Shown here: piece after piece, positions 27,004 through 44,202 of the stretch
Position numbering within the stretch: position 1 is the stretch's first letter
How the letters are laid out: the number at the start of each line of letters is the position of its first letter
The notes under the pieces: generated by a model
The model's database searches: none
Seen by the model: the letters and a program-made list of their open reading frames with translations, nothing else
Told to the model about the DNA's origin: nothing
From: Candidatus Staskawiczbacteria bacterium
GTDB taxonomy: Bacteria; Patescibacteriota; Minisyncoccia; Minisyncoccales; Staskawiczbacteraceae
NCBI GenBank assembly: GCA_023245155.1
Contig: JAHFKV010000001.1
Coordinates: forward strand, 331,034-395,033
Reading direction: 5' to 3'
Length of the DNA: 64,000 nucleotides
Position numbers and translations under genes: made by a program

Positions 27004-27128
27004 TTTTTTTTATGGTAAAAATACGGCATGCGTAAAGTGCATCATCGCGCCCTGGAGGAATAGTACCTCGGCGGTCTCATAAGCCGCAGGTCCCCGTGCA
27101 ATTCGGGGGGGCGCAACAAATTTTGCGC

Positions 27129-27202
27129 GCCGGGGTAGCTCAGTTGGCAAGAGCGCCACACTCATAACGTGGAGGTCGAGAGTTCGAATCTCTCCCTCGG
27201 CA
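27129..27202 (+). tRNA. tRNA with CAT anticodon (elongator Met, or Ile2 if lysidinylated)
   Basis: Hand-folded cloverleaf: acceptor GCCGGGG/CCTCGGC, D arm GCTC..GAGC, anticodon loop CTCATAA, T arm GAGAG-TTCGAAT-CTCTC. It lacks the initiator hallmarks (3 GC pairs in the anticodon stem, 1:72 mismatch). Confidence 0.85.
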
Positions 27203-27220
27203 CCGGCAGTAATAACACAT

Positions 27221-27295
27221 GCGGGCATGGTGTAGCCTGGTTAACACGCCTCCCTGTCACGGAGGAGACCGGGGGTTCAAATCCCCCTGCTCGCG
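27221..27295 (+). tRNA. tRNA-Asp (GTC)
   Basis: Acceptor GCGGGCA/TGCTCGC, anticodon arm CCTCC-CTGTCAC-GGAGG, T arm GGGGG-TTCAAAT-CCCCC. Confidence 0.9.
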
Positions 27296-27676
27296 CTACT
27301 CGACACGAATCGAAGCTAAAGCTTAGATTTTGTGTTTATTTTGGGTCTTTTTTGTCAGTTCCAACCTTTTATATCTGGCTTCCAGTACAGGATAGTCTTT
27401 TTGAATAGGAATAAACCACTTATTCGGATGAAGATATTCCTTTGGCAGAAGCCATAGGTGCAATTTCAATTAACCTTAATGATTTAGTAGTCCTAAATCC
27501 AATTCTTCTTCCATCATTAGTAATAGTAAGGGATCCACATGAAAATATTATAAAGCAATTATTGGAATGGGAAAAAGTGCCGGATGGTTATTTTGTAACT
27601 AAAGTAAATTAAGATACCAATATTTAATGTAATAGCCAGTAGAAGTCGCTTTTAAAAAAGGCAATTTTTTGATAGA

Positions 27677-37577: not shown

Positions 37578-38801
37578 ATGAATGCAGAAGATATTTTCCA
37601 AGAAACATTTGCTGCGCTTACCGTAAATAAATTGCGGTCCGGTTTGACCATGCTGGGAGTTATTATAGGCATCGCTTCCGTAATTGCCATGATTTCCATT
37701 GGCCAGGGGGCGCAAGGTTCCATCCAAAGTCGCATCCAATCAATCGGCTCAAACCTGATTTTAATTACTCCTGGATTTACACGCGGGGTGGGCACCCAGG
37801 TTTCAACCGGCAGGGGTTCGGCCCAAACCCTCACCTCAGAAGATGCCAGCGCCCTTTCGGGTATTGCGAGTGTTAAGGCCATTGCTCCTGAAGAATCAAA
37901 GCGTTACCAAGTAACTGCCACCGGGAAAAATACCAACACTTCAGTTAATGGCACTGTTCCCGCGTATACTGAAGTGCGGAATTTAGAAATTGACACCGGT
38001 TCATTTATTACCGATGAAAATGTTTCTTCGGCCTCAAAAGTGGCGGTGCTGGGACCAACTACGAGAGATGATTTATTTGGCGTTGGGGCGGGAGATGTTA
38101 TTGGCGAATCTATCCGCATAAACCATATTAATTTTAAAATCATTGGCATTACCAAATCAAAAGGCGGCACGGGTTTTGGCAACCAAGATGATATGATTTT
38201 CGTACCATTATCAACGCTCCAAAAATATCTGTCGGGCGATCATTATGTCACCACCATCAGCGTTGCGGCTCAAAACCAAACCAGCATGGCCCAGGCTCAG
38301 CAACAAATTACCAGCACCTTGCTTGCCCGCCACAATATTTCAGATGCAACCCAGGCGGATTTCCAAATTCTCAACCAGCAAGACATTATTGCCACCGCCT
38401 CATCAGTCACCGGCATTTTTACTATTTTATTGGCATCTATTGCCGGAATTTCGCTGGTGGTCGGCGGCATTGGAATTATGAATATGATGTTGACCACCGT
38501 AACAGAGCGCACGCGCGAGATCGGTTTGCGCAAAGCCATCGGCGCTACCAAAAAAGATATCAGTCTGCAATTTTTGGCCGAATCATTTACGTTAACATTT
38601 GTGGGTGGAGTGATTGGTGTTGCCTTGGGATGGTTTATTTCTTTGGGGGTTGCCAAGTTTGCTAATATTCCCACCCAGGTTTCATTGGGATCAATTATAT
38701 TAGCGTTTGGTGTTTCAGCTTTTATCGGTATTGTGTTTGGCTATTATCCCGCACGCCGGGCAGCCGGATTAAATCCGATTGAAGCGTTAAGGTACGAATA
38801 A
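37578..38801 (+). CDS. ABC transporter permease (MacB/FtsX type)
   Basis: TM1, a large periplasmic domain, and a C-terminal FtsX 3-TM block (ERTREIGLRKAIGA). Confidence 0.85.
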   Translation: MNAEDIFQETFAALTVNKLRSGLTMLGVIIGIASVIAMISIGQGAQGSIQSRIQSIGSNLILITPGFTRGVGTQVSTGRGSAQTLTSEDASALSGIASVKAIAPEESKRYQVTATGKNTNTSVNGTVPAYTEVRNLEIDTGSFITDENVSSASKVAVLGPTTRDDLFGVGAGDVIGESIRINHINFKIIGITKSKGGTGFGNQDDMIFVPLSTLQKYLSGDHYVTTISVAAQNQTSMAQAQQQITSTLLARHNISDATQADFQILNQQDIIATASSVTGIFTILLASIAGISLVVGGIGIMNMMLTTVTERTREIGLRKAIGATKKDISLQFLAESFTLTFVGGVIGVALGWFISLGVAKFANIPTQVSLGSIILAFGVSAFIGIVFGYYPARRAAGLNPIEALRYE

Positions 38802-38822
38802 TAAAATTAACATTTTAAAAAA

Positions 38823-39218
38823 ATGCAGAAAAACACACAGTACATCGTTGCAATCGTGGCCGCATTAATTATTGCCGGCGGAGCTTTTTATGGAGGTATG
38901 ACCTATGCCAAAAGTCAGGTTCCCCAGCGCGCTGGCGGTATGATGGGCGCGAGAAACGGGCAAAGATTTATGGCCGGTGCTAATTTTATTTCCGGCGATG
39001 TGGTAGCCAAAGATGCTCAAAGTGTTACCGTAAAATTGCGTGATGGTAATTCAAGAATTGTGTTTTATTCAACGGCCACTGATGTGGGAAAGTTTGTGGC
39101 AGGTTCCATTGATGATGTTGCGGTTGGTAAAACCGTTATGGTGAATGGCAAAACCAACACCGATGGCAGTGTTACCGCTCAATCCATCCAAATACGACCG
39201 GCTATGCCCCAACCCTAG
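38823..39218 (+). CDS. Membrane-anchored small beta-domain protein (DUF5666-like)
   Basis: TM helix, then [24 protein letters not shown]...[25 protein letters not shown]. Confidence 0.45.
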
Positions 39219-39288
39219 CCGGCAAACTTCCCAACATACTCTGCATTAGCTATACCACAGCCAAAGTAGGGTTTTTCTTTTTGTTTAC

Positions 39289-39316
39289 TTGACAGGTTTT
39301 GCAAGAGGCATATAAT
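39289..39316 (+). promoter_or_regulatory. Consensus sigma70-type promoter (mini-cassette C)
   Basis: TTGACA (39289-94), 16 nt, TATAAT (39311-16). Confidence 0.7.
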
Positions 39317-39361
39317 CAATTTTAATGGGTATCTTGTGATTTTTTCCAGTGGGGATATGCT

Positions 39362-39634
39362 ATGTTGCAGTGTTTCCGGCTTACGCCGCACCAAGAAGAG
39401 TGGATCTCTCGTTGGCTGCGGTACTACCAAACTGGCGTGATTACGTTTGATGACGTTATCAGGCTTTGCGAGGAAAAGTTTGGAGTTGGGCCATGGAAGG
39501 CAGAAATCGCCAAAATGATGCGGCGCAGGTCCCGCGGGGTTCCAACGGGGAACCGCCGGGTTCATCGGAGCAATTTTTGCTCCCGCATTCAACGAAGCCA
39601 CACCGGTTCACTTGGTGTGGCTTGCTTTTTTTAA
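39362..39634 (+). CDS. 90-aa basic-tailed small protein, or a structured small RNA, of unknown function
   Basis: GGGGA lies 6 nt upstream of the ATG. The ORF runs through its own terminator hairpin, and the 3' third contains three hairpins, so coding status is uncertain. Confidence 0.35.
   Translation: MLQCFRLTPHQEEWISRWLRYYQTGVITFDDVIRLCEEKFGVGPWKAEIAKMMRRRSRGVPTGNRRVHRSNFCSRIQRSHTGSLGVACFF
39595..39632 (+). terminator. Intrinsic terminator
   Basis: AAGCCACACC / GGTTCACTT / GGTGTGGCTT followed by GCTTTTTTT. Confidence 0.85.
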
Positions 39635-39660
39635 AGCTATGTATATATTACCATCATCTA

Positions 39661-39689
39661 TTGACAAGGGTATTGGATAGTGATATAAT
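39661..39689 (+). promoter_or_regulatory. Consensus promoter of the DGR target gene
   Basis: TTGACA (39661-66), 17 nt, TATAAT (39684-89). Confidence 0.7.
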
Positions 39690-39746
39690 TAAAATATAGG
39701 GTGAAATATCCTATTTTAAGCACATTTACATCAAAAAAGAGAAGAT

Positions 39747-39796
39747 GGTTATGGCTAAGAGACACCAAACTAATTTGGTGTTTGCTAGCCATAACC
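39747..39796 (+). promoter_or_regulatory. Extended hairpin in the roughly 140-nt 5' leader of the DGR target gene
   Basis: GGTTATGGCTA pairs with TAGCCATAACC (11 bp) and ACACCAAA pairs with TTTGGTGT (8 bp). They are separated by a 4x4 internal loop, with apical loop CTAA. Confidence 0.55.
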
Positions 39797-39835
39797 ACAC
39801 ATGTAGCCTTTACTTTTTCGCCCAAAGGAGTTCCC

Positions 39836-40432
39836 ATGGCCGTCGCAGTCGCAACCGCAAACGCATCTGAAATCCTGTCCGTTCGGGAACTCAATGAGTT
39901 CGCCAAGATGGCAGGTCCCGACAACGTCCGCGCTGTTCTGGCCGGCCACGCCACCCTTACGGTGGAAAGGCTCCTTGTCGAAAAGGGGTTCGTGGACGCC
40001 AAGGCCGTCAAGAGTTTTCTGCCCGCCGACCGTCTCAAAGCTTGCAACATCGGCTTCACGGGCAGCAACTTTGACCGCGTCTTTCTGAAGAAGAACCAGC
40101 CAGCGGCGCCGGCTTGCCGTATGACCCGGTATCACCTGGCCAAGGATTTGCTGGATGACCCCATCCGCAAGGCGCTGGGCGAAGGCCACGAAGGCTCCCT
40201 AGGCTACCTGTTCGATCAAATCGAGCTGCAGTCCCAGGGCCAAGAGGGCGATCTGCTCACCAGCGGCTACGCCAACGTGCTGTACGTCTTCGACGATGAA
40301 GGCAAACCCTGGGCCGTGGGCGCCGGCTGGGTCTCCGTTAGCCGCTTCTGGCGCGTTGAGGCCAGTCCGGCTGGCATTCCCTACGGGTGGGGCAAGGGCG
40401 ACCGGTTCTTCTCTTGCAATTCTAAGCCCTAA
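39836..40432 (+). CDS. DGR variable (target) protein, 198 aa, no signal peptide
   Basis: AAAGGAG-N5-ATG at 39836. The visible GC rise starts here. The C-terminal 37 codons are the VR. I rejected the GTG at 39701 because it lies in the AT-rich leader. Confidence 0.8.
   Translation: MAVAVATANASEILSVRELNEFAKMAGPDNVRAVLAGHATLTVERLLVEKGFVDAKAVKSFLPADRLKACNIGFTGSNFDRVFLKKNQPAAPACRMTRYHLAKDLLDDPIRKALGEGHEGSLGYLFDQIELQSQGQEGDLLTSGYANVLYVFDDEGKPWAVGAGWVSVSRFWRVEASPAGIPYGWGKGDRFFSCNSKP
40308..40417 (+). repeat. DGR variable repeat (VR)
   Basis: 110 bp, collinear with 40763..40872. There are 21 differences, all opposite TR adenines. Confidence 0.9.
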
Positions 40433-40463
40433 GTTGCTTTGCAATTTGGGTGCTTGGAACCTG

Positions 40464-40517
40464 AGACTCTTTGAAATTTTCGTACGAAAGTGCGGAAGTT
40501 ACAAAGAGTCTTTTTTG
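40464..40517 (+). terminator. Terminator/structured element downstream of the VR
   Basis: AGACTCTTTG pairs with CAAAGAGTCT and is followed by TTTTTG. The loop encloses the perfect palindrome TTTCGTACGAAA (40478-40489). Confidence 0.6.
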
Positions 40518-40762
40518 TTTCCAAAAAAGGTGTACAATGCACCTGAGGATCAGCTTGGTACAACTGCCATGGCAATTGTACAGCGCCTTGAGGATACACG
40601 ATACAGAGTCGCCGCGGGCAAGCCCGCGGCGAGAGTTAGCTTGTATTTTTCCAAAAAAGAAAAGAATCGGTGCTATGCGCTGGCGGGCTTTGAAGCCCCA
40701 TATAAGATGCAGTCCTGAGAATATTCAAGGGACAGTGCCAAAGATGGCGCATGGTACATTTT

Positions 40763-40872
40763 CCTGGGCCGTGAACGCCAACTGGAACTCCGATAACCGC
40801 TACTGGAACGTTGAAGCCAATCCGGCTGACAATCCCAACAGGTGGAACAAGGGCAACCAGTTCTTCTCTTGC
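40763..40872 (+). repeat. DGR template repeat (TR)
   Basis: Noncoding copy with 29 adenines. In the target frame it reads AVNANWNSDNRYWNVEANPADNPNRWNKGNQFFSC (7 AAC and 2 AAT codons). Confidence 0.9.
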
Positions 40873-40874
40873 TA

Positions 40875-41255
40875 CTACTTTCTTTCCGGGCGCATATATT
40901 GTTGTGCGTCCGGTTTTATCTGCTTTTGCAGTAAACCTTTTTTCCAGCCACCCACCATTTTTCCTAAATCTTCCATATCGGCGGCAAGGGAGATATACTG
41001 CGGGTTGGAAATCAGCCGTAGCTCCCATAATAATTGAATAAAAAAACGCAGCGAATCAATATGCTCCGACACGCTTTCAAGCAAGATAATCTTTTTATTG
41101 ATAGGTGTGTATCCTGCTTTTCTTAGGAGCTCAAGCAGTTCTAAAAATAATTGATCAACCTTGTTGCCAATACCAAAGCGCGCCGTTCTTTCGATATTGC
41201 GGTGCAACCCGGTCCATATTTTGTAAACAGCTTTAGCTTTTTCCAAAACTGGCAA
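40875..41255 (-). CDS. avd: Avd-like accessory variability determinant (four-helix-bundle protein)
   Basis: An all-helical 126-aa protein with LPVLEKAKAVYKIW near the N-terminus and DLGKMVGGWKKGL near the C-terminus. TTG start with no SD. An in-frame TAA lies just upstream, after the C9 run. Confidence 0.7.
   Translation of the reverse strand: MPVLEKAKAVYKIWTGLHRNIERTARFGIGNKVDQLFLELLELLRKAGYTPINKKIILLESVSEHIDSLRFFIQLLWELRLISNPQYISLAADMEDLGKMVGGWKKGLLQKQIKPDAQQYMRPERK
40886..40920 (+). terminator. Terminator-like hairpin 14 nt after the TR, inside antisense avd
   Basis: CCGGGCGCA / 10-nt loop / TGCGTCCGG (one mismatch), followed by TTTTATC. Confidence 0.45.
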
Positions 41256-41261
41256 CAGTCT

Positions 41262-41270
41262 GGGGGGGGG
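41262..41270. repeat. G9/C9 homopolymer in the 34-bp avd-RT gap
   Basis: The sequence at 41261-41271 reads TGGGGGGGGGT. Confidence 0.95.
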
Positions 41271-41289
41271 TTAGTGGCAACGTATTTTT

Positions 41290-42303
41290 ATGAAAATCCA
41301 ATTGAGCCATAGATTTGAAGATTTGGTGATTATTGATAATTTGCTTTACGCTTGGCAGGAGTTTTTGAAAGGCAAAAAAAATAAGAAAGACGTGCAAGAG
41401 TTCCAATTCAATCTCATGGATAACATACTATCGTTGCATCAAGATCTTGTCAATAAAACCTACCGGCACGGCGGCTATGAAACCTTTAATATTTCCGACC
41501 CAAAGCCGCGAATTATCCATAAAGCCAGTGTGCGCGACCGGTTGCTGCATCATGCCATCTACCGGGTTTTGTATCCGTTTTTTGATGATACGTTTATTGC
41601 AGATTCTTTTTCGTGCAGGAATGAAAAGGGAACCCATAAGGCCATAAAACGCTTTCATGACTTTTACCATATTGTTTCAAAAAATAGTACGCGCCAGTGC
41701 TGGGTGCTAAAATGCGACATCAAAAAGTTTTTTCATTCCATTGATCAAAAAGTATTGCTTCAAATATTACGGGCTTATATTCCCAATCCGGATATTATGG
41801 ATTTGTTACAGAATATTTTGGGCAGTTTTCATGCATCAAAAGAGGGGATTGGCCTGCCGCTGGGAAACTTAACATCGCAGTTGTTTGCCAATGTGTATAT
41901 GAACCAATTTGACCAGTTTGTAAAACACACATTAAAAGCCAAACATTACATACGGTACGCCGACGACTTTGTACTATTGTCAGAAAGTAAAGATTATTTA
42001 GAAAAGTTGGTGCCTTTGATTGGAGCATTTTTACAACAAAAACTAGCATTATCATTACATCCCGATAAAGTATTTATAAAAACATTTTCTTCGGGGGTGG
42101 ACTTTTTGGGCTGGGTGAACTTTAAGGACCATGCCGTGATCAGGGCAACCACCAAAAAGAGGATGTTTAAAAGATTAAAAAAGAATTATAACGCATCAAC
42201 GTTAAGTTCTTACTTGGGGCTTTTAAAGCACGGCAATACGGGAAAAGTGAAAGATAAGATTTTAACCTTATATACAAATCCTCCAACCAATGGCGCGGCA
42301 TAA
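41290..42303 (+). CDS. DGR-type reverse transcriptase
   Basis: SFSCRNEKGTH, CDIKKFFHSID, GLPLGNLTSQLFANVYMNQFD (the DGR hallmark GNxxSQ), IRYADDFVLL, GVDFLGW. Confidence 0.9.
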   Translation: MKIQLSHRFEDLVIIDNLLYAWQEFLKGKKNKKDVQEFQFNLMDNILSLHQDLVNKTYRHGGYETFNISDPKPRIIHKASVRDRLLHHAIYRVLYPFFDDTFIADSFSCRNEKGTHKAIKRFHDFYHIVSKNSTRQCWVLKCDIKKFFHSIDQKVLLQILRAYIPNPDIMDLLQNILGSFHASKEGIGLPLGNLTSQLFANVYMNQFDQFVKHTLKAKHYIRYADDFVLLSESKDYLEKLVPLIGAFLQQKLALSLHPDKVFIKTFSSGVDFLGWVNFKDHAVIRATTKKRMFKRLKKNYNASTLSSYLGLLKHGNTGKVKDKILTLYTNPPTNGAA

Positions 42304-42387
42304 ATTACGCCGGCCCTGTTTTAGCAGCTTGCAATATATTGATTATTTCTTTTGCTGGGAATATGATGCATATGAAGCATTTCAACT

Positions 42388-44202
42388 ATGCAATCTGCCA
42401 ACAATTTTTTAGAAAAACTAAATACCGAATATGCAAAACTCCACAAGACCTATGAAGAGCTGTTTTGGCTTTCATATATGGGTGACCATTTGGTGAACGC
42501 TAAAAAAGACAAAGCTTTAGCCGCCCGGGATGCGTTCCGAAGCAGTAAAGATCATTATGAAAGAGTTAAGCAATTTAAGCTTCAAGATACCAGTTTTAAA
42601 ATTCAAAAGCGTTTAAAGATTTGGCTGGATTTTTTTGAGCGCTACCAGATTCCCTCAGAAGCCTTGGCTCTAAAAAACAAGATTAATGCCCTGGAAACCA
42701 GGATTCTCAAAGGGCAGGGAATCCGCAAGGAAGGCTACCTTGACCCCTATACTAAAAAATTTGTGGAGGCTTCCGCTCTGCGCATGCGGATGATGATAAC
42801 CACCAGCCCAGATGAAAACATCCGCAAAGCTTGCTGGCAGGCGCGCGAAAAATTGGCAACCGGATTTGTGAAAGAATATATTGCCGTGGTCAATTTGCGC
42901 AACCAATTTGCTCGCGCTCTGGGTTTTAAAGATTTTTACGATTTCAAACTGCACCGCGAAGACGGCATGACCAAGCAAGAACTGTTTTCCCTGTTTAATT
43001 CGCTATATGAAAAAACCAAGTATGCGTTTGCTGATATCCGGAAGCTGGAAAAAACGATGCCTGGTTTGCGCAAACCTTGGAATTTTGGGCATTTGATGAG
43101 CGGAGATTTTACCAAAGAAGAAGATCCTTATTTCCAGTTTGACCAAGCCCTTATGCGCTGGGGGCGTTCGTTTGCCGCTCTGGGCATTGATTACAAACAA
43201 GGAGTTTTAACCTTGGATCTGTTGGATCGGAAAGGGAAGTGGAACAACGGTTTTTGCCATTGGCCGGATTTGGTGCACTATAAAAACGGCAAACGTTTAA
43301 CTGGCAGTTCAAACTTTACCTGCAACGTGGTGGCCGGGCAAGTGGGCAGCGGAGTCCAAGGCTATGTAACCTTGTTTCATGAAGGTGGTCACGCCGCCCA
43401 CCTGTTAACTGCACAGCAGCCGGACGTTATTTTAAATCAAGAATACGCTCCCATGAGCACTGCTTGGGCTGAAGTGCAAAGCATGTTTTTAGACACCTTA
43501 TTTTCCAGCATTGAATGGAAAACCCGGTATGCCAAAAACGCAGCCGGCCAACCGTATCCTTTTGAATTATTTGAACGGAAAGTCCGGAAATTGCGTCTGT
43601 TGGCGCCCACCCGGATGAATTCTATTTTATTTGTGGCACAATATGAACGGGAAATATACGAAGCTAAAGATTTGAATACTGCCAAAGTAAAAGCCATTGC
43701 CAAAAAGAATTACCAGAAATATTTTGACATGTCTGAAGATTCCCTGTCTGCCCTCGCCGTGCCCCATATTTATTCATGGGAAAGTTCGGCGGCGTATCAT
43801 GGTTATGGCTTGGCCGAGCTGGGCCTTTCCCAGTGGCGAGAATATTTTTATAAAAAGTACGGATATATTGTAGATAACAAAAAGGTGGGGAAAGAAATGG
43901 CCAAGGTATGGAAATTGGGAGCTACGCACACGTATAAAGCATTTATCAAACTAGCCACGGGCAAGCCTATTTCCGCCGAACCCTTTTTAAGAGAGGTTAC
44001 CAAGCCTGTGGGAAAAGTTTTAAAAAGCGCTCAGGAAAAAATCAAACACTTGGAAAGGGTGCCGCAGCACAGAGGCCCTGTTACGTTAAATGCAAGCGTG
44101 CGCATGGTGCATGGTAAACAAGAAATTGCTAACAGTAAAAAGAGTTTTGAGGATATGGCCAAGCGCTATCAAGAGTGGGTGAGGCGTCAGGCCTCACGCT
44201 AA
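42388..44202 (+). CDS. M3-family oligoendopeptidase (PepF-like)
   Basis: Zinc motif FHEGGHAAH (HExxH). Size and helical architecture fit the M3 family. Confidence 0.7.

Follow-up and report, generated by a model that had tools for sequence, protein, structure and literature searches.

The window, a 64,000-nt stretch of DNA from a Candidatus Staskawiczbacteria bacterium, contains a DGR, as identified by its TR/VR pair, its DGR-type RT, and Avd. Taken as a whole, it is likely an ordinary and apparently active DGR of the CPR clade that has the B3 gene order and whose template would be made as a noncoding RNA (ncRNA) of its own with a length of ~380 nt. The cassette is arranged in the order of target gene with VR, TR, avd on the opposite strand, and RT. 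The reversed avd between TR and RT is real, but this is the normal and already catalogued layout of CPR DGRs. In the catalogue of Wu et al. (2018; NAR 46:11; PMC5758913), architecture B3 is given as 'TR-(avd)-RT' with a reverse-strand avd (Figure 5 legend), and B3 makes up 90% of the CPR set. The window has the same components in the same order and orientation as the B3 set, with avd opposite to the strand of TR and RT, and its layout shows no difference. The labels of the RT homologues and of the genome loci place it in CPR/Patescibacteria, and the closest relatives of its RT are all Patescibacteria MAGs. DGR clade 2, which corresponds to the CPR B3 set, is confined to Patescibacteria (Roux et al., 2021; PMC8144416). 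The coordinates of TR, avd, RT, the gap, and the hairpin in the initial annotation were all correct on re-check. Its description of the layout as non-canonical or novel is not supported; the layout departs from the BPP-1 paradigm only.

Layout among relatives

The genome sample comprised 80 loci, mostly from MAGs labelled Patescibacteria/CPR and a few with other or generic 'bacterium' labels. Hainich groundwater is among the sources of the metagenome loci. A minus-strand avd lies directly upstream of RT in all 75 informative genome loci and in 58 of 59 metagenome loci. All 58 loci with a callable TR have the order VR, ~350 nt, TR, (avd), RT. The distance between TR and the avd stop codon has a median of 12 nt and ranges from -58 to +39 nt, and the avd–RT gap is ~20-60 nt. 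Hence, the 2 nt and 34 nt that separate these elements in the window are ordinary. An ENA contig from another sample (L081) is 100% identical to the window over 38590-42616, and the VRs of the two are identical as well.

Target gene and repeats

The target gene (39701..40432, + strand) encodes 243 aa from a GTG at 39701, and one ENA gene call starts it at ATG 39836 instead (198 aa). A promoter-like site at 39661..39689 (+) reads TTGACA-17-TATAAT with TG and agrees at 12/12 positions, as a consensus match only. The protein has no Pfam or NCBIfam match. The GC content of the gene is ~0.6 versus 0.42 for the window. Recent horizontal transfer specific to the window was considered for this high GC content and rejected, because 55 of 57 relatives have the same offset.

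VR (40308..40417, +) is at the 3' end of the target gene, and TR (40763..40872, +) is its direct repeat, with the homology beginning 2 nt earlier at 40761. The repeats span 110 nt and are 81% identical. All 21 mismatches are located at TR adenines; 21 of the 29 TR adenines are changed in VR, comprising 15 A-to-G, 5 A-to-T, and 1 A-to-C substitutions. The 64-kb window has no further VR copy. The final 13 nt of VR and TR (GTTCTTCTCTTGC) follow the last A-to-N site and are identical, after which the flanks diverge. This identical end has the position expected of IMH/IMH* and is not GC-rich. Four assemblies of a close relative that are identical in RT show, within 2.3 kb, differences only at VR sites matching TR adenines and by one G of the tract described below. 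We take the VR differences among these assemblies as in-situ activity of that DGR.

VR is followed by two hairpins. The first is a long imperfect hairpin (40420..40459, +) starting 3 nt past VR, with a folding energy of -22.7 kcal/mol (z = -5.5). The post-VR region of the relatives also folds strongly, with a mean of -17.6 kcal/mol over 62 nt. These are single-sequence folds, since alignment-based folding failed on registers that differ, as they do after TR. The hairpin matches in position the inverted repeat downstream of IMH in characterised DGRs, and the hairpin after TR is a different one. The second is a terminator-like hairpin with a T-run (40463..40520, +; -28.7 kcal/mol, z = -7.2), and a comparable element is found past VR in 42 of 59 relatives. 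It is predicted to end the target-gene transcript ahead of the TR RNA unit.

RT and Avd

RT (41290..42303, +) has 337 aa and matches RVT_1 with an E value of 1e-24. Its translation carries the motif LGNLTSQ, an instance of the signature [LIV]GxxxSQ, which we take to be typical of DGRs. More than 8000 homologues were found at E < 1e-20, and the named ones are from Patescibacteria. The close homologues all adjoin TR/VR pairs. A promoter scan returned no strong sigma-70-like promoter for RT. An RT start further upstream, reading through the G tract, was rejected for the window, which has an in-frame TAG at 41272-41274.

The avd ORF (40875..41255, - strand) encodes 126 aa from a TTG start, and its stop codon (40875-40877) is 2 nt past the last TR base. 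Avd matches Pfam bAvd (PF22296) with an E value of 5e-10 and 40.2 bits (cut-off 40). Residues 1-106 align to positions 1-104 of the 104-position NCBIfam profile DivGenRetAVD (E 2e-16), with a score of 60 bits that is under the curated cut-off of 80. The Avd domain is composed of these 106 residues (41255-40938, -), and a non-domain tail of 20 aa follows (40937-40878, -). The tail runs antisense across three elements described below, namely the linker, the hairpin, and the U-tract. The third codon positions of avd are constrained over the tail only, and no extra constraint was seen beyond the U-tract. The overlap of avd with the predicted RNA elements is thus confined to its non-domain tail. 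Weak RNA constraints beyond the U-tract could be masked by the protein-coding constraint of avd.

Structured leader upstream of TR

The predicted promoter of the TR RNA is an extended -10-like box (TG TACAAT; 40531..40538, +), which is ~225 nt upstream of TR and predicts a start near 40545. A -10 hexamer with at least five of the six TATAAT positions is present in 48 of 59 loci, often after TGn. The box is at a fixed distance of 10-11 nt from the conserved leader, and it forms conserved columns in the alignment. The predicted RNA begins with a structured 5' leader (40545..40762, +). The leader contains helices P1 (40563-68/40571-78, +), P2 (40609-18/40623-32, +), and P3 (40670-81/40746-57, +), and P3 encloses helices P3a (40685-88/40695-98, +) and P3b (40712-16/40729-33, +). 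An A-rich strand (40653-67, +) and an invariant joiner (40664-69, +) precede P3. In a plain MAFFT alignment, 93.2% of the cells of the conserved structure are paired, versus 72.9% in shuffles and 39-57% with slid partners. Compensatory changes occur in 48 of the 54 structure pairs, and the observed values were reached by 0 of 500 shuffles. A covariance model of this region (R1) matches the window at 40650-40759 with 99.3 bits (E 1.7e-18). Across 71 + 57 = 128 loci it matches each cassette once, on the strand of RT, and it has no off-target match in ~890 kb. An Rfam search of 39400-42500 with E values up to 1 returned only a chance match to isrA (E 0.89).

The leader also pairs with a strand on the other side of TR. 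The linker strand just 3' of TR (40879..40885, +) is complementary to the leader at 40656-40662. Among the relatives, all six core pairs of this leader:linker duplex have compensatory changes, and 90% of the cells are paired. The duplex has 7 bp in the window, of which two are compensatory relative to the consensus AAATGAAGA/TCTTCATTT. We infer from this covariation that the long-range duplex would clamp the two ends of TR together. The A-rich strand and the hairpin of the window differ in sequence from the clade consensus, and both pair in register. When the TR 3' end was matched to the leader with RNAduplex to find a possible template:primer duplex, the positions were scattered, with a weak cluster near an invariant GGTG.

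Hairpin downstream of TR

The TR RNA is predicted to end with an 11-bp hairpin and the U-tract TTTTATCTGCTTTT (40886..40927, +). The hairpin itself (40886-40913), followed by TTTTATCTGC, was flagged by a terminator scan and has 11 pairs, of which 7 are G-C. It folds with -21.4 kcal/mol (z = -5.9) on the + strand and -12.8 kcal/mol on the minus strand, where it is weaker because G-U pairs become A-C mismatches. U-G pairs are common in the relatives' hairpins, which have the same strand asymmetry. The minus strand has no U-tract after the hairpin. The whole window contains 5 terminator-like sites versus 4.0 expected, so that a single site is not above chance. Among the relatives, a post-TR hairpin with U-tract is present in 52 of 59 loci, versus 4.2% of background 75-nt windows (binomial P ~6e-64). 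The position of these hairpins is conserved and their sequence is variable, with 44 distinct 5' arms. RNAalifold returned no structure for the plain MAFFT alignment of the post-TR region, because the hairpins are in different registers, and the enrichment test was therefore alignment-free.

The initial annotation proposed a discrete TR RNA with its end at the hairpin. These comparative data support the proposal, and the template is probably a structured RNA complete in itself. Its size had been guessed as 0.35 kb and is estimated here at ~380 nt, from ~40545 to ~40927. In the annotation, the whole sequence 3' of TR was also described as antisense avd. Taken literally this is correct, but the nucleic-acid-level constraint past TR extends for ~55 nt only, covering linker, hairpin, and U-tract, and the large structured RNA is 5' of TR. 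The TR-flanking elements appear to be mostly on the 5' side, since the covarying leader lies there. It is plausible that avd transcripts run antisense into TR. Intrinsic terminators can be leaky and are often partial. As no strong RT promoter was found either, some read-through from TR across antisense avd into RT is possible. If priming needs sequence 3' of the hairpin, as in BPP-1, the RNA would need to reach into antisense avd, a region in which we saw no conservation signal for such an extension.

Control region between avd and RT

The avd–RT gap (41256-41289) has 34 nt and contains a homopolymer (41262..41270), which is G9 in the + direction and C9 when read along avd. The tract lies upstream of both start codons, 6 nt from the avd TTG and 19 nt from the RT ATG. 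It has at least seven G in 68 of 76 genome loci and at least eight in 48 of 58 metagenome loci, and the remaining 552 kb contain just 7 such runs. Its length across related loci is 6-14. In one group of otherwise identical assemblies the tract is either G9 or G10. Its length is uniform in the other three assembly groups, the P0055 group being all G9. These exact-protein look-ups are biased for the P0022 and P0053 groups, since the called RT ORF there includes the G tract; the informative RTs are those whose ORF excludes it, namely the group with G9 and G10 and the uniform P0055 group. A sequencing artefact was rejected as the origin of the tract, which is internal and has a conserved position in >110 loci from many studies. 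A role as the Shine-Dalgarno sequence of RT was also rejected, the spacing to the ATG being 15-25 nt. Between the tract and RT there is usually a -10-like box. The initial annotation had stated that a 34-bp gap cannot hold two independent promoters, so that at least one gene must be driven from inside its neighbour. This is reasonable and in part borne out, and the gap is itself a conserved control region in which the G tract is followed by the -10-like box.

A hidden ORF on the avd strand (41233..41310, -) crosses the gap and the C-tract. It starts at an ATG (41310-41308) antisense to RT codon 7 (CAT), is part of a longer ORF (41233..41406), and in the window is shifted by 1 nt from the avd frame. 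By its sequence, a C8 tract would fuse it in frame to avd. The ORF stays open as far as the tract in 42/42 and 44/44 loci (86/86 together). In a strict subset, its frame is open in 24 of 24 loci versus 15 of 24 and 9 of 24 for the other frames, and the joint P of this openness against shuffles is ~5e-7. Relative to the avd frame, the ORF is in frame in 15 of the 86 loci, at +1 in 45, and at +2 in 26. The ORF is putatively translated. That an ORF starting in RT codon 7 is kept open to the tract implies that avd expression would start inside RT. The first codon of Avd is TTG in many loci including the window. In ~40% of loci this conserved Leu is encoded by a non-start codon (TTA, CTA, CTT, and others), and an in-frame start codon near the Avd N-terminus is absent altogether from 10 of 59 loci. 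The G9-10 tract and the open but mostly out-of-frame ORF suggest a hypothetical switch acting by slippage or phase variation. The tract data would be explained equally well by phase variation, by transcriptional slippage, or by ribosomal frameshifting at CCC-C.

Discussion

In the mechanism that we propose, the template would be transcribed as its own ~380-nt ncRNA from the -10 promoter at 40531-40538, just past the target-gene terminator, and would end at the hairpin and U-tract at 40886-40927. TR (40763-40872) would be looped out, with P3 abutting its 5' end and the leader:linker duplex abutting its 3' end. The post-TR hairpin would probably serve both as Avd-binding stem-loop and as intrinsic terminator. 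The counterpart of the 3' structured RNA of BPP-1 (the 140-nt Sp) should sit mostly 5' of TR here, and it is because of this proposed position that avd would be able to occupy the 3' side of TR in antisense. RT and avd would be expressed divergently from the compact control region with the G9-10 tract.

Other explanations for the region 3' of TR have to be weighed. An assembly error could have inverted the avd segment of a cassette that is truly co-directional as in BPP-1, the window being from a metagenome-type assembly and the reversed avd being only a departure from BPP-1. This is excluded because the same orientation is common to the genome and metagenome relatives counted above, which are independent and come from many studies, and we give it practically no credence. 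The independent ENA contig is identical across the cassette, B3 as published has this very layout, and the U-tract and hairpin over the avd tail as well as the G tract by the avd start fit the present orientation only. The hairpin at 40886-40913 could also be a terminator of avd or a bidirectional one, and not part of the TR RNA, as it is at the avd 3' end where two transcription units converge. Its minus-strand copy, however, is inside the avd ORF upstream of the stop codon, is followed by GGAAAGAAAG with no U-tract, and is the less stable one in the window and in the relatives alike, which makes this role very unlikely.

A further explanation is a single long RNA, made from the target or TR promoter and running through TR and antisense avd into RT, in which the hairpin would only bind Avd and priming would take place inside antisense avd. 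The location of the BPP-1 priming site and RT-binding elements 3' of TR speaks for such an RNA, and so do the lack of a strong RT promoter in the scan and the partial action of many terminators. Against it, the U-tract after the hairpin is conserved in most loci, avd is free of third-position constraint from the U-tract on, and a -10-like box shortly before RT usually follows the G tract. In addition, the large covarying 5' RNA domain could supply the functions that would otherwise be missing. We thus regard the long RNA as unlikely and prefer the separate template RNA.

The BPP-1 DGR RNA has been solved by cryo-EM, which revealed an Avd-binding stem-loop at Sp 3-33 and a flanking duplex (Handa et al., bioRxiv 10.1101/2023.10.23.563531). 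Its priming site (Sp A56) and RT-binding elements are within the ~140-nt Sp, 3' of TR. The same study reported putative Avd-binding stem-loops just past TR in 207 of 278 Avd-containing DGRs, CPR members included, and looked at only 40 nt upstream of TR. The window shares with BPP-1 (mtd-avd-TR-brt) the adenine-specific differences between TR and VR, the pair of Avd and RT, and a hairpin just downstream of VR. It also shares a stem-loop 3' of TR, which has 11 bp in both (Sp 3-33 in BPP-1) and is 14 nt past TR here. This stem-loop has the position of the Avd-binding stem-loop of BPP-1 and is a putative Avd-binding element. In BPP-1, TR is looped out by a flanking duplex, the avd:Sp 'cPRT Stop'. 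The leader:linker duplex would loop TR out here in a topologically similar way and is putatively equivalent to it.

The differences from BPP-1 concern the position and topology of the RNA elements. In the window, avd is inverted and lies 3' of TR. The structured flanking RNA is ~220 nt long and 5' of TR, in contrast to the 3' Sp of 140 nt in BPP-1. The upstream strand of the duplex is ~95 nt before TR with a three-helix domain in between, whereas in BPP-1 it is ~5 nt away. The 3' strand of the duplex precedes the stem-loop here and follows it in BPP-1, and the post-TR stem-loop of the window is then followed by a U-tract. We saw no counterpart of the priming and RT-binding ncRNA of BPP-1 on the 3' side of TR here, the sequence beyond the U-tract being antisense to the Avd domain, with unconstrained third codon positions.

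The poly-G/C tracts of Neisseria, Haemophilus, and Campylobacter are homopolymer-driven contingency (phase-variable) loci. The avd–RT gap resembles them in having 9-10 G/C in a row close to a gene's 5' end within a divergent control region, in the varying length of the tract, and in an upstream ATG ORF that is mostly out of frame with the downstream coding region. It differs from them in that the tract is known here from assemblies and that TTG is present at the first Avd codon in many loci. In retrons, the separately transcribed structured RNA msr-msd serves a dedicated RT as its template and also as its recognition handle. The likeness to the DGR in the window is in this logic only, with no Rfam match here. 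Unlike the cDNA of retrons, DGR cDNA serves homing into VR and is not retained as msDNA. In the literature searched, we found no description of the structured leader, the leader:linker duplex, the post-TR U-tract, or the poly-G tract, and no report that ties a poly-G tract to a DGR accessory gene.

The layout itself matters little, because specialists already list it as the usual arrangement in CPR. The mechanistic understanding of DGRs comes from BPP-1, in which the essential RNA elements are 3' of TR, and we know of no experimental model for clade 2 (Patescibacteria) DGRs. The comparative data give a concrete RNA for the CPR clade, with defined predicted ends, five covarying helices, a long-range duplex, and an invariant joiner. 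The conserved poly-G/C tract was unexpected and may regulate Avd. It is possible, and we put it forward tentatively, that two features hold across the CPR DGR clade, the window included: an autonomous DGR RNA that is permuted relative to BPP-1, and an Avd made from the ATG at RT codon 7 and gated by the C9-10 tract. The permuted RNA may have its own promoter and a ~220-nt 5' domain that recruits RT and Avd, and on its 3' side a looped-out TR and a stem-loop doubling as terminator. The gating of Avd may be by tract-length phase variation, transcriptional slippage, or ribosomal frameshifting, which would set Avd amount/homing. If true, this would illustrate how a DGR ribonucleoprotein is rebuilt around an altered RNA topology, and targeted hypermutation in tiny-genome bacteria would itself be stochastically gated, with a hypermutable switch on the hypermutation machine. 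The annotation of avd in the CPR clade would improve as well. Gene callers shorten or miss avd in this clade, with calls of 65 aa and 92 aa and none on a large contig.

Gene order of the DGR cassette

The window holds a complete diversity-generating retroelement (DGR) cassette. Its 110-nt direct repeat (40308-40417 and 40763-40872, both on the + strand) is 81% identical, and all 21 differences fall at adenines of the downstream copy, 21 of whose 29 adenines are changed. The downstream copy is therefore the template repeat (TR); the other is the variable repeat (VR) and lies at the 3' end of a 243-aa ORF (39701-40432). No further VR copy was found within the 64-kb window. The accessory gene avd lies on the minus strand (40875-41255; Pfam bAvd, E 5e-10); residues 1-106 of Avd span the whole 104-position NCBIfam profile DivGenRetAVD (E 2e-16), with a score under the curated cut-off. 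The reverse transcriptase (RT) gene (41290-42303, +) matches RVT_1 with E 1e-24 and encodes an LGNLTSQ motif. The avd stop codon (40875-77) lies 2 nt past the end of TR, the avd TTG (41255) and the RT ATG (41290) are 34 nt apart, and a hairpin at 40886-40913 is followed by TTTTATC. Re-derivation of the repeat, ORF, profile and hairpin positions confirmed every coordinate of the initial annotation. A spurious 188-aa ORF (40471-41037, +) crosses the leader, the TR and antisense avd. Its 166-aa shorter form is a called gene in ENA contigs, and in a 429-kb ENA contig the spurious ORF is called where avd should be, avd itself having no call there. A three-tRNA cluster at 27046-27296 (two tRNA-Met with anticodon CAT and a tRNA-Asp) is unrelated to the DGR.

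The inversion of avd between TR and RT had been called non-canonical, a description that holds only in comparison with the Bordetella phage BPP-1 system. The order "TR-(avd)-RT", with parentheses denoting the reverse strand, is class B3 in the cassette scheme of Wu et al. 2018 (PMC5758913), and DGR components on different strands need at least two transcription units (PMC5758913). Homologues of the RT number more than 8000 (E < 1e-20), the named ones being Patescibacteria. We compared 80 related loci from species-representative genomes, mostly labelled Patescibacteria/CPR MAGs. With the window Avd as tblastn query, avd was found on the minus strand directly upstream of RT in all 75 genome loci with upstream DNA. 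A TR/VR pair with adenine-biased mismatches was detectable in 58 of these, all with the order VR, ~350 nt, TR, (avd), RT, and with everything except avd on the RT strand. In the related loci the distance from TR end to avd stop has a median of 12 nt (range -58 to +39), and avd and RT are ~20-60 nt apart. The inverted avd recurs in 58 of 59 loci from an independent set of 80 metagenome loci, and the window cassette recurs without any difference in a contig from a second ENA sample. The orientation shared by relatives and by this second contig rules out an assembly inversion. The layout is the norm of its clade and, being already catalogued, is no novelty.

A conserved hairpin 3' of TR

A hairpin followed by a T-run (stem of at least 6 bp, start -5 to +70 of the TR end, RT strand) occurs after TR in 52 of 59 loci, compared with 4.2% of background 75-nt windows from the same loci (P ~6e-64). 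Several of the 7 loci without a scored hairpin carry bulged ones there. The stems have 44 distinct 5' arms, such as CTCTCC/GGAGAG, CTTCCGC/GCGGAAG and CCCCGC/GCGGGG, with CCGGGCGCATA/TGTGCGTCCGG in the window; the structure is kept and not the sequence. The window hairpin folds with -21.4 kcal/mol (z = -5.9) on the + strand and with -12.8 kcal/mol (z = -3.0) on the minus strand, where G-U pairs turn into A-C mismatches; U-G pairs are also common among relatives. On the minus strand it sits within the avd ORF and has no U-run after it. Together with the strand asymmetry, this argues that the hairpin acts on + strand RNA. The Avd pentamer of BPP-1 grips an 11-bp stem-loop, which comes first among the elements 3' of TR (Sp 3-33, Sp being the RNA region 3' of TR), and Handa et al. 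list putative equivalents just 3' of TR in 207 of 278 Avd-containing DGRs, including CPR ones (bioRxiv 10.1101/2023.10.23.563531). The most economical reading is that the hairpin serves as a putative Avd-binding stem-loop and, since the U-tract is conserved, would double as an intrinsic terminator.

RNA 3' of TR is essential in BPP-1, whereas in the window this space is antisense avd. In a codon alignment of 55 avd genes, third-position identity is 0.3-0.6 throughout the Avd domain, which is ordinary variability. Constraint rises only in the tail overlapping the U-tract and hairpin (Avd residues 107-126 in the window, beyond the Avd profile), and third codon positions of these genes give no sign of an RNA element past the U-tract. 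This absence, combined with the organised VR-TR spacer, appears to resolve the puzzle of antisense avd 3' of TR.

A structured leader 5' of TR

The VR-TR spacer opens with an imperfect 19-bp hairpin (40420-40459, +; z = -5.5), which begins 3 nt past VR and runs across the stop codon of the target gene; strong folding at the corresponding place is also seen in relatives. By position it resembles the inverted repeat 3' of IMH, a target-recognition aid in BPP-1 and Legionella DGRs. A terminator-like hairpin with a T-run follows (40463-40520, +; -28.7 kcal/mol, z = -7.2), with an equivalent in 42 of 59 loci, and then an extended -10-like box, TG-TACAAT (40531-38, +), at a fixed distance from the leader. 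In 48 of 59 loci the box shares at least 5 of 6 positions with TATAAT, many with TGn before it. The last element of the spacer is a conserved leader of ~220 nt.

Pair counts are from 59 sequences in a plain MAFFT alignment; the structure scored combines the RNAalifold helices with the post-TR hairpin and with a long-range duplex added by hand. Paired cells amount to 93.2% (shuffles, 72.9 ± 0.5%; slid partners, 39-57%), and the covariation score is 0.648 (shuffles, 0.263; slid partners, at most 0.18). None of 500 shuffles reached the observed values, and 48 of the 54 pairs show compensatory changes. RNAalifold helices P1 (40563-68/40571-78) and P2 (40609-18/40623-32) precede P3 (40670-81/40746-57; 12 bp, 98% paired), which encloses P3a (40685-88/40695-98) and P3b (40712-16/40729-33), all on the + strand. 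The long-range duplex (40656-62/40879-85, +) joins an A-rich block (consensus AAATGAAGA) to the linker just 3' of TR (consensus TCTTCATTT), with covariation at all six core pairs. The gaps to TR are 5 nt on the P3 side and 6 nt on the duplex side; bracketed so closely, TR would be looped out from a junction, at which an invariant joiner (consensus TACTTGG) also lies.

R1, a covariance model of the A-block and P3 domain, matches exactly once per cassette, immediately 5' of TR and on the RT strand. There are 71 matches in the window and genome loci, at least 12 of those loci being outside model building, and 57 in independent metagenome loci; the window match (40650-40759) scores 99.3 bits. No off-target match occurred in ~890 kb, and Rfam had no match to the leader. 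The span of Handa et al. upstream of TR is 40 nt only (bioRxiv 10.1101/2023.10.23.563531), so the leader would have escaped their notice. We found no description of it in the literature searched, a scope that excludes Paul et al. 2017.

Proposed TR RNA

The target gene would have a promoter, for which 39661-89 (+) is a perfect consensus match, and a terminator of its own. From the conserved -10 box and the hairpin/U-tract, TR RNA is predicted to be a separate unit of ~380 nt, from ~40545 to 40927. Its 5' domain and 3' stem-loop would, by analogy with BPP-1, recruit RT and Avd. The leader:linker duplex and P3 may hold the TR ends together in the manner of the BPP-1 cPRT Stop, and cDNA synthesis may halt at P3, which borders TR on its 5' side. 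An RNAduplex search of the leader for a partner of the TR 3' end, as in a template:primer duplex, gave scattered positions, weakly clustered near the invariant GGTG. The proposal of the initial annotation, a separate TR RNA that ends at the hairpin, gains strong comparative support from the hairpin/U-tract, the -10 box and the covarying leader. Compared with BPP-1, the DGR RNA of this CPR clade may be permuted, with most of its structured part 5' of TR.

The avd-RT gap and the start of avd

A G9 tract (41262-41270, +; C9 on the avd strand) lies 6 nt upstream of the avd TTG. Of 76 genome loci, 68 have a G7+ run in the avd-RT gap, and of 58 metagenome loci, 48 have a G8+ run; the tract is present in ~85-90% of related cassettes (mode 9-10, range 6-14), and the remaining 552 kb contain only 7 runs of at least 7 G or C. 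Just after the tract, the + strand usually has a -10-like TAnnAT or cTTAAA box, with RT 15-25 nt further on. At the consensus level this box is compatible with an RT promoter that has a short leader and overlaps the avd 5' end with its upstream part.

Avd 'codon 1' is a conserved Leu, encoded across the two sets by TTG (43 loci), TTA (29) and CTN (14). TTA and CTN are synonymous codons unable to initiate, and their use is the first of three observations that make TTG doubtful as a universal avd start. From the upstream stop to codon 16, 10 of 59 loci have no in-frame ATG, GTG or TTG, and 7 further loci have an in-frame start only at codons 7-16. Public avd gene calls in relatives are shortened to 65 and 92 aa and are elsewhere absent. 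In 86 loci an ATG on the avd strand lies precisely opposite RT codon 7, this codon being CAT in 45 of 59, and the ORF from that ATG is open to the tract in all 86. In a strict subset this frame is open in 24/24, against 15/24 and 9/24 for the other two; with a mean probability of 0.56 for an open frame in shuffled intergenic segments, the joint P is ~5e-7. The ORF is in frame with avd in 15 of 86 loci, at +1 in 45 and at +2 in 26. In the window this hidden ORF (41233-41310, -) starts with the ATG at 41310 as MAQLDFHKNTLPLTPP..., and loss of a single C would join it in frame to LPVLEKAKAVYK....

Dependence of avd expression on the tract would agree with these data, with phase variation of the DNA, transcriptional slippage or frameshifting by ribosomes on CCC-C as candidate mechanisms; we regard this hypothesis as possible but less likely than not. 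Four Hainich groundwater assemblies with an identical RT (L093-L096) come from different filters and replicates. Over the 2.3 kb compared, they differ only at VR positions that correspond to TR adenines (at most 16 substitutions) and in one G-tract base. The VR pattern provides direct evidence of target diversification in situ in this DGR clade. The tract base separates L093 from the otherwise identical L094-L096 as a G9/G10 polymorphism, which is suggestive of tract-dependence of avd but may have arisen by homopolymer error. Tract-dependence would support the earlier claim that at least one gene must be driven from inside its neighbour: avd translation would start inside the first RT codons, and the promoter would then lie there too. 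Promoter-like matches at 41358-41329 and 41453-41425 (-) are matches to the consensus only. We found no description of three features of the CPR DGR clade: the structured leader 5' of TR, the long-range leader:linker duplex, and the poly-G/C tract together with the hidden ORF.

Composition and start of the target gene

The target-gene body upstream of VR (39750-40500 region) is ~16 GC points above avd and RT of the same cassette. Its GC is 0.59 in the window, against 0.38-0.42 for avd/RT; across loci the means are 0.54 and 0.37, and the target body is higher in 55 of 57. Being clade-wide, the feature does not point to a recent transfer into this genome. An inverted repeat at 39746-39797 (24-nt arms, 88% complementary, 4-nt loop) falls between the consensus promoter match (39661-39689) and the ATG at 39836, which is the target start in one ENA gene call. 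It may form a 5'-UTR structure, or the 243-aa ORF call may begin too early.
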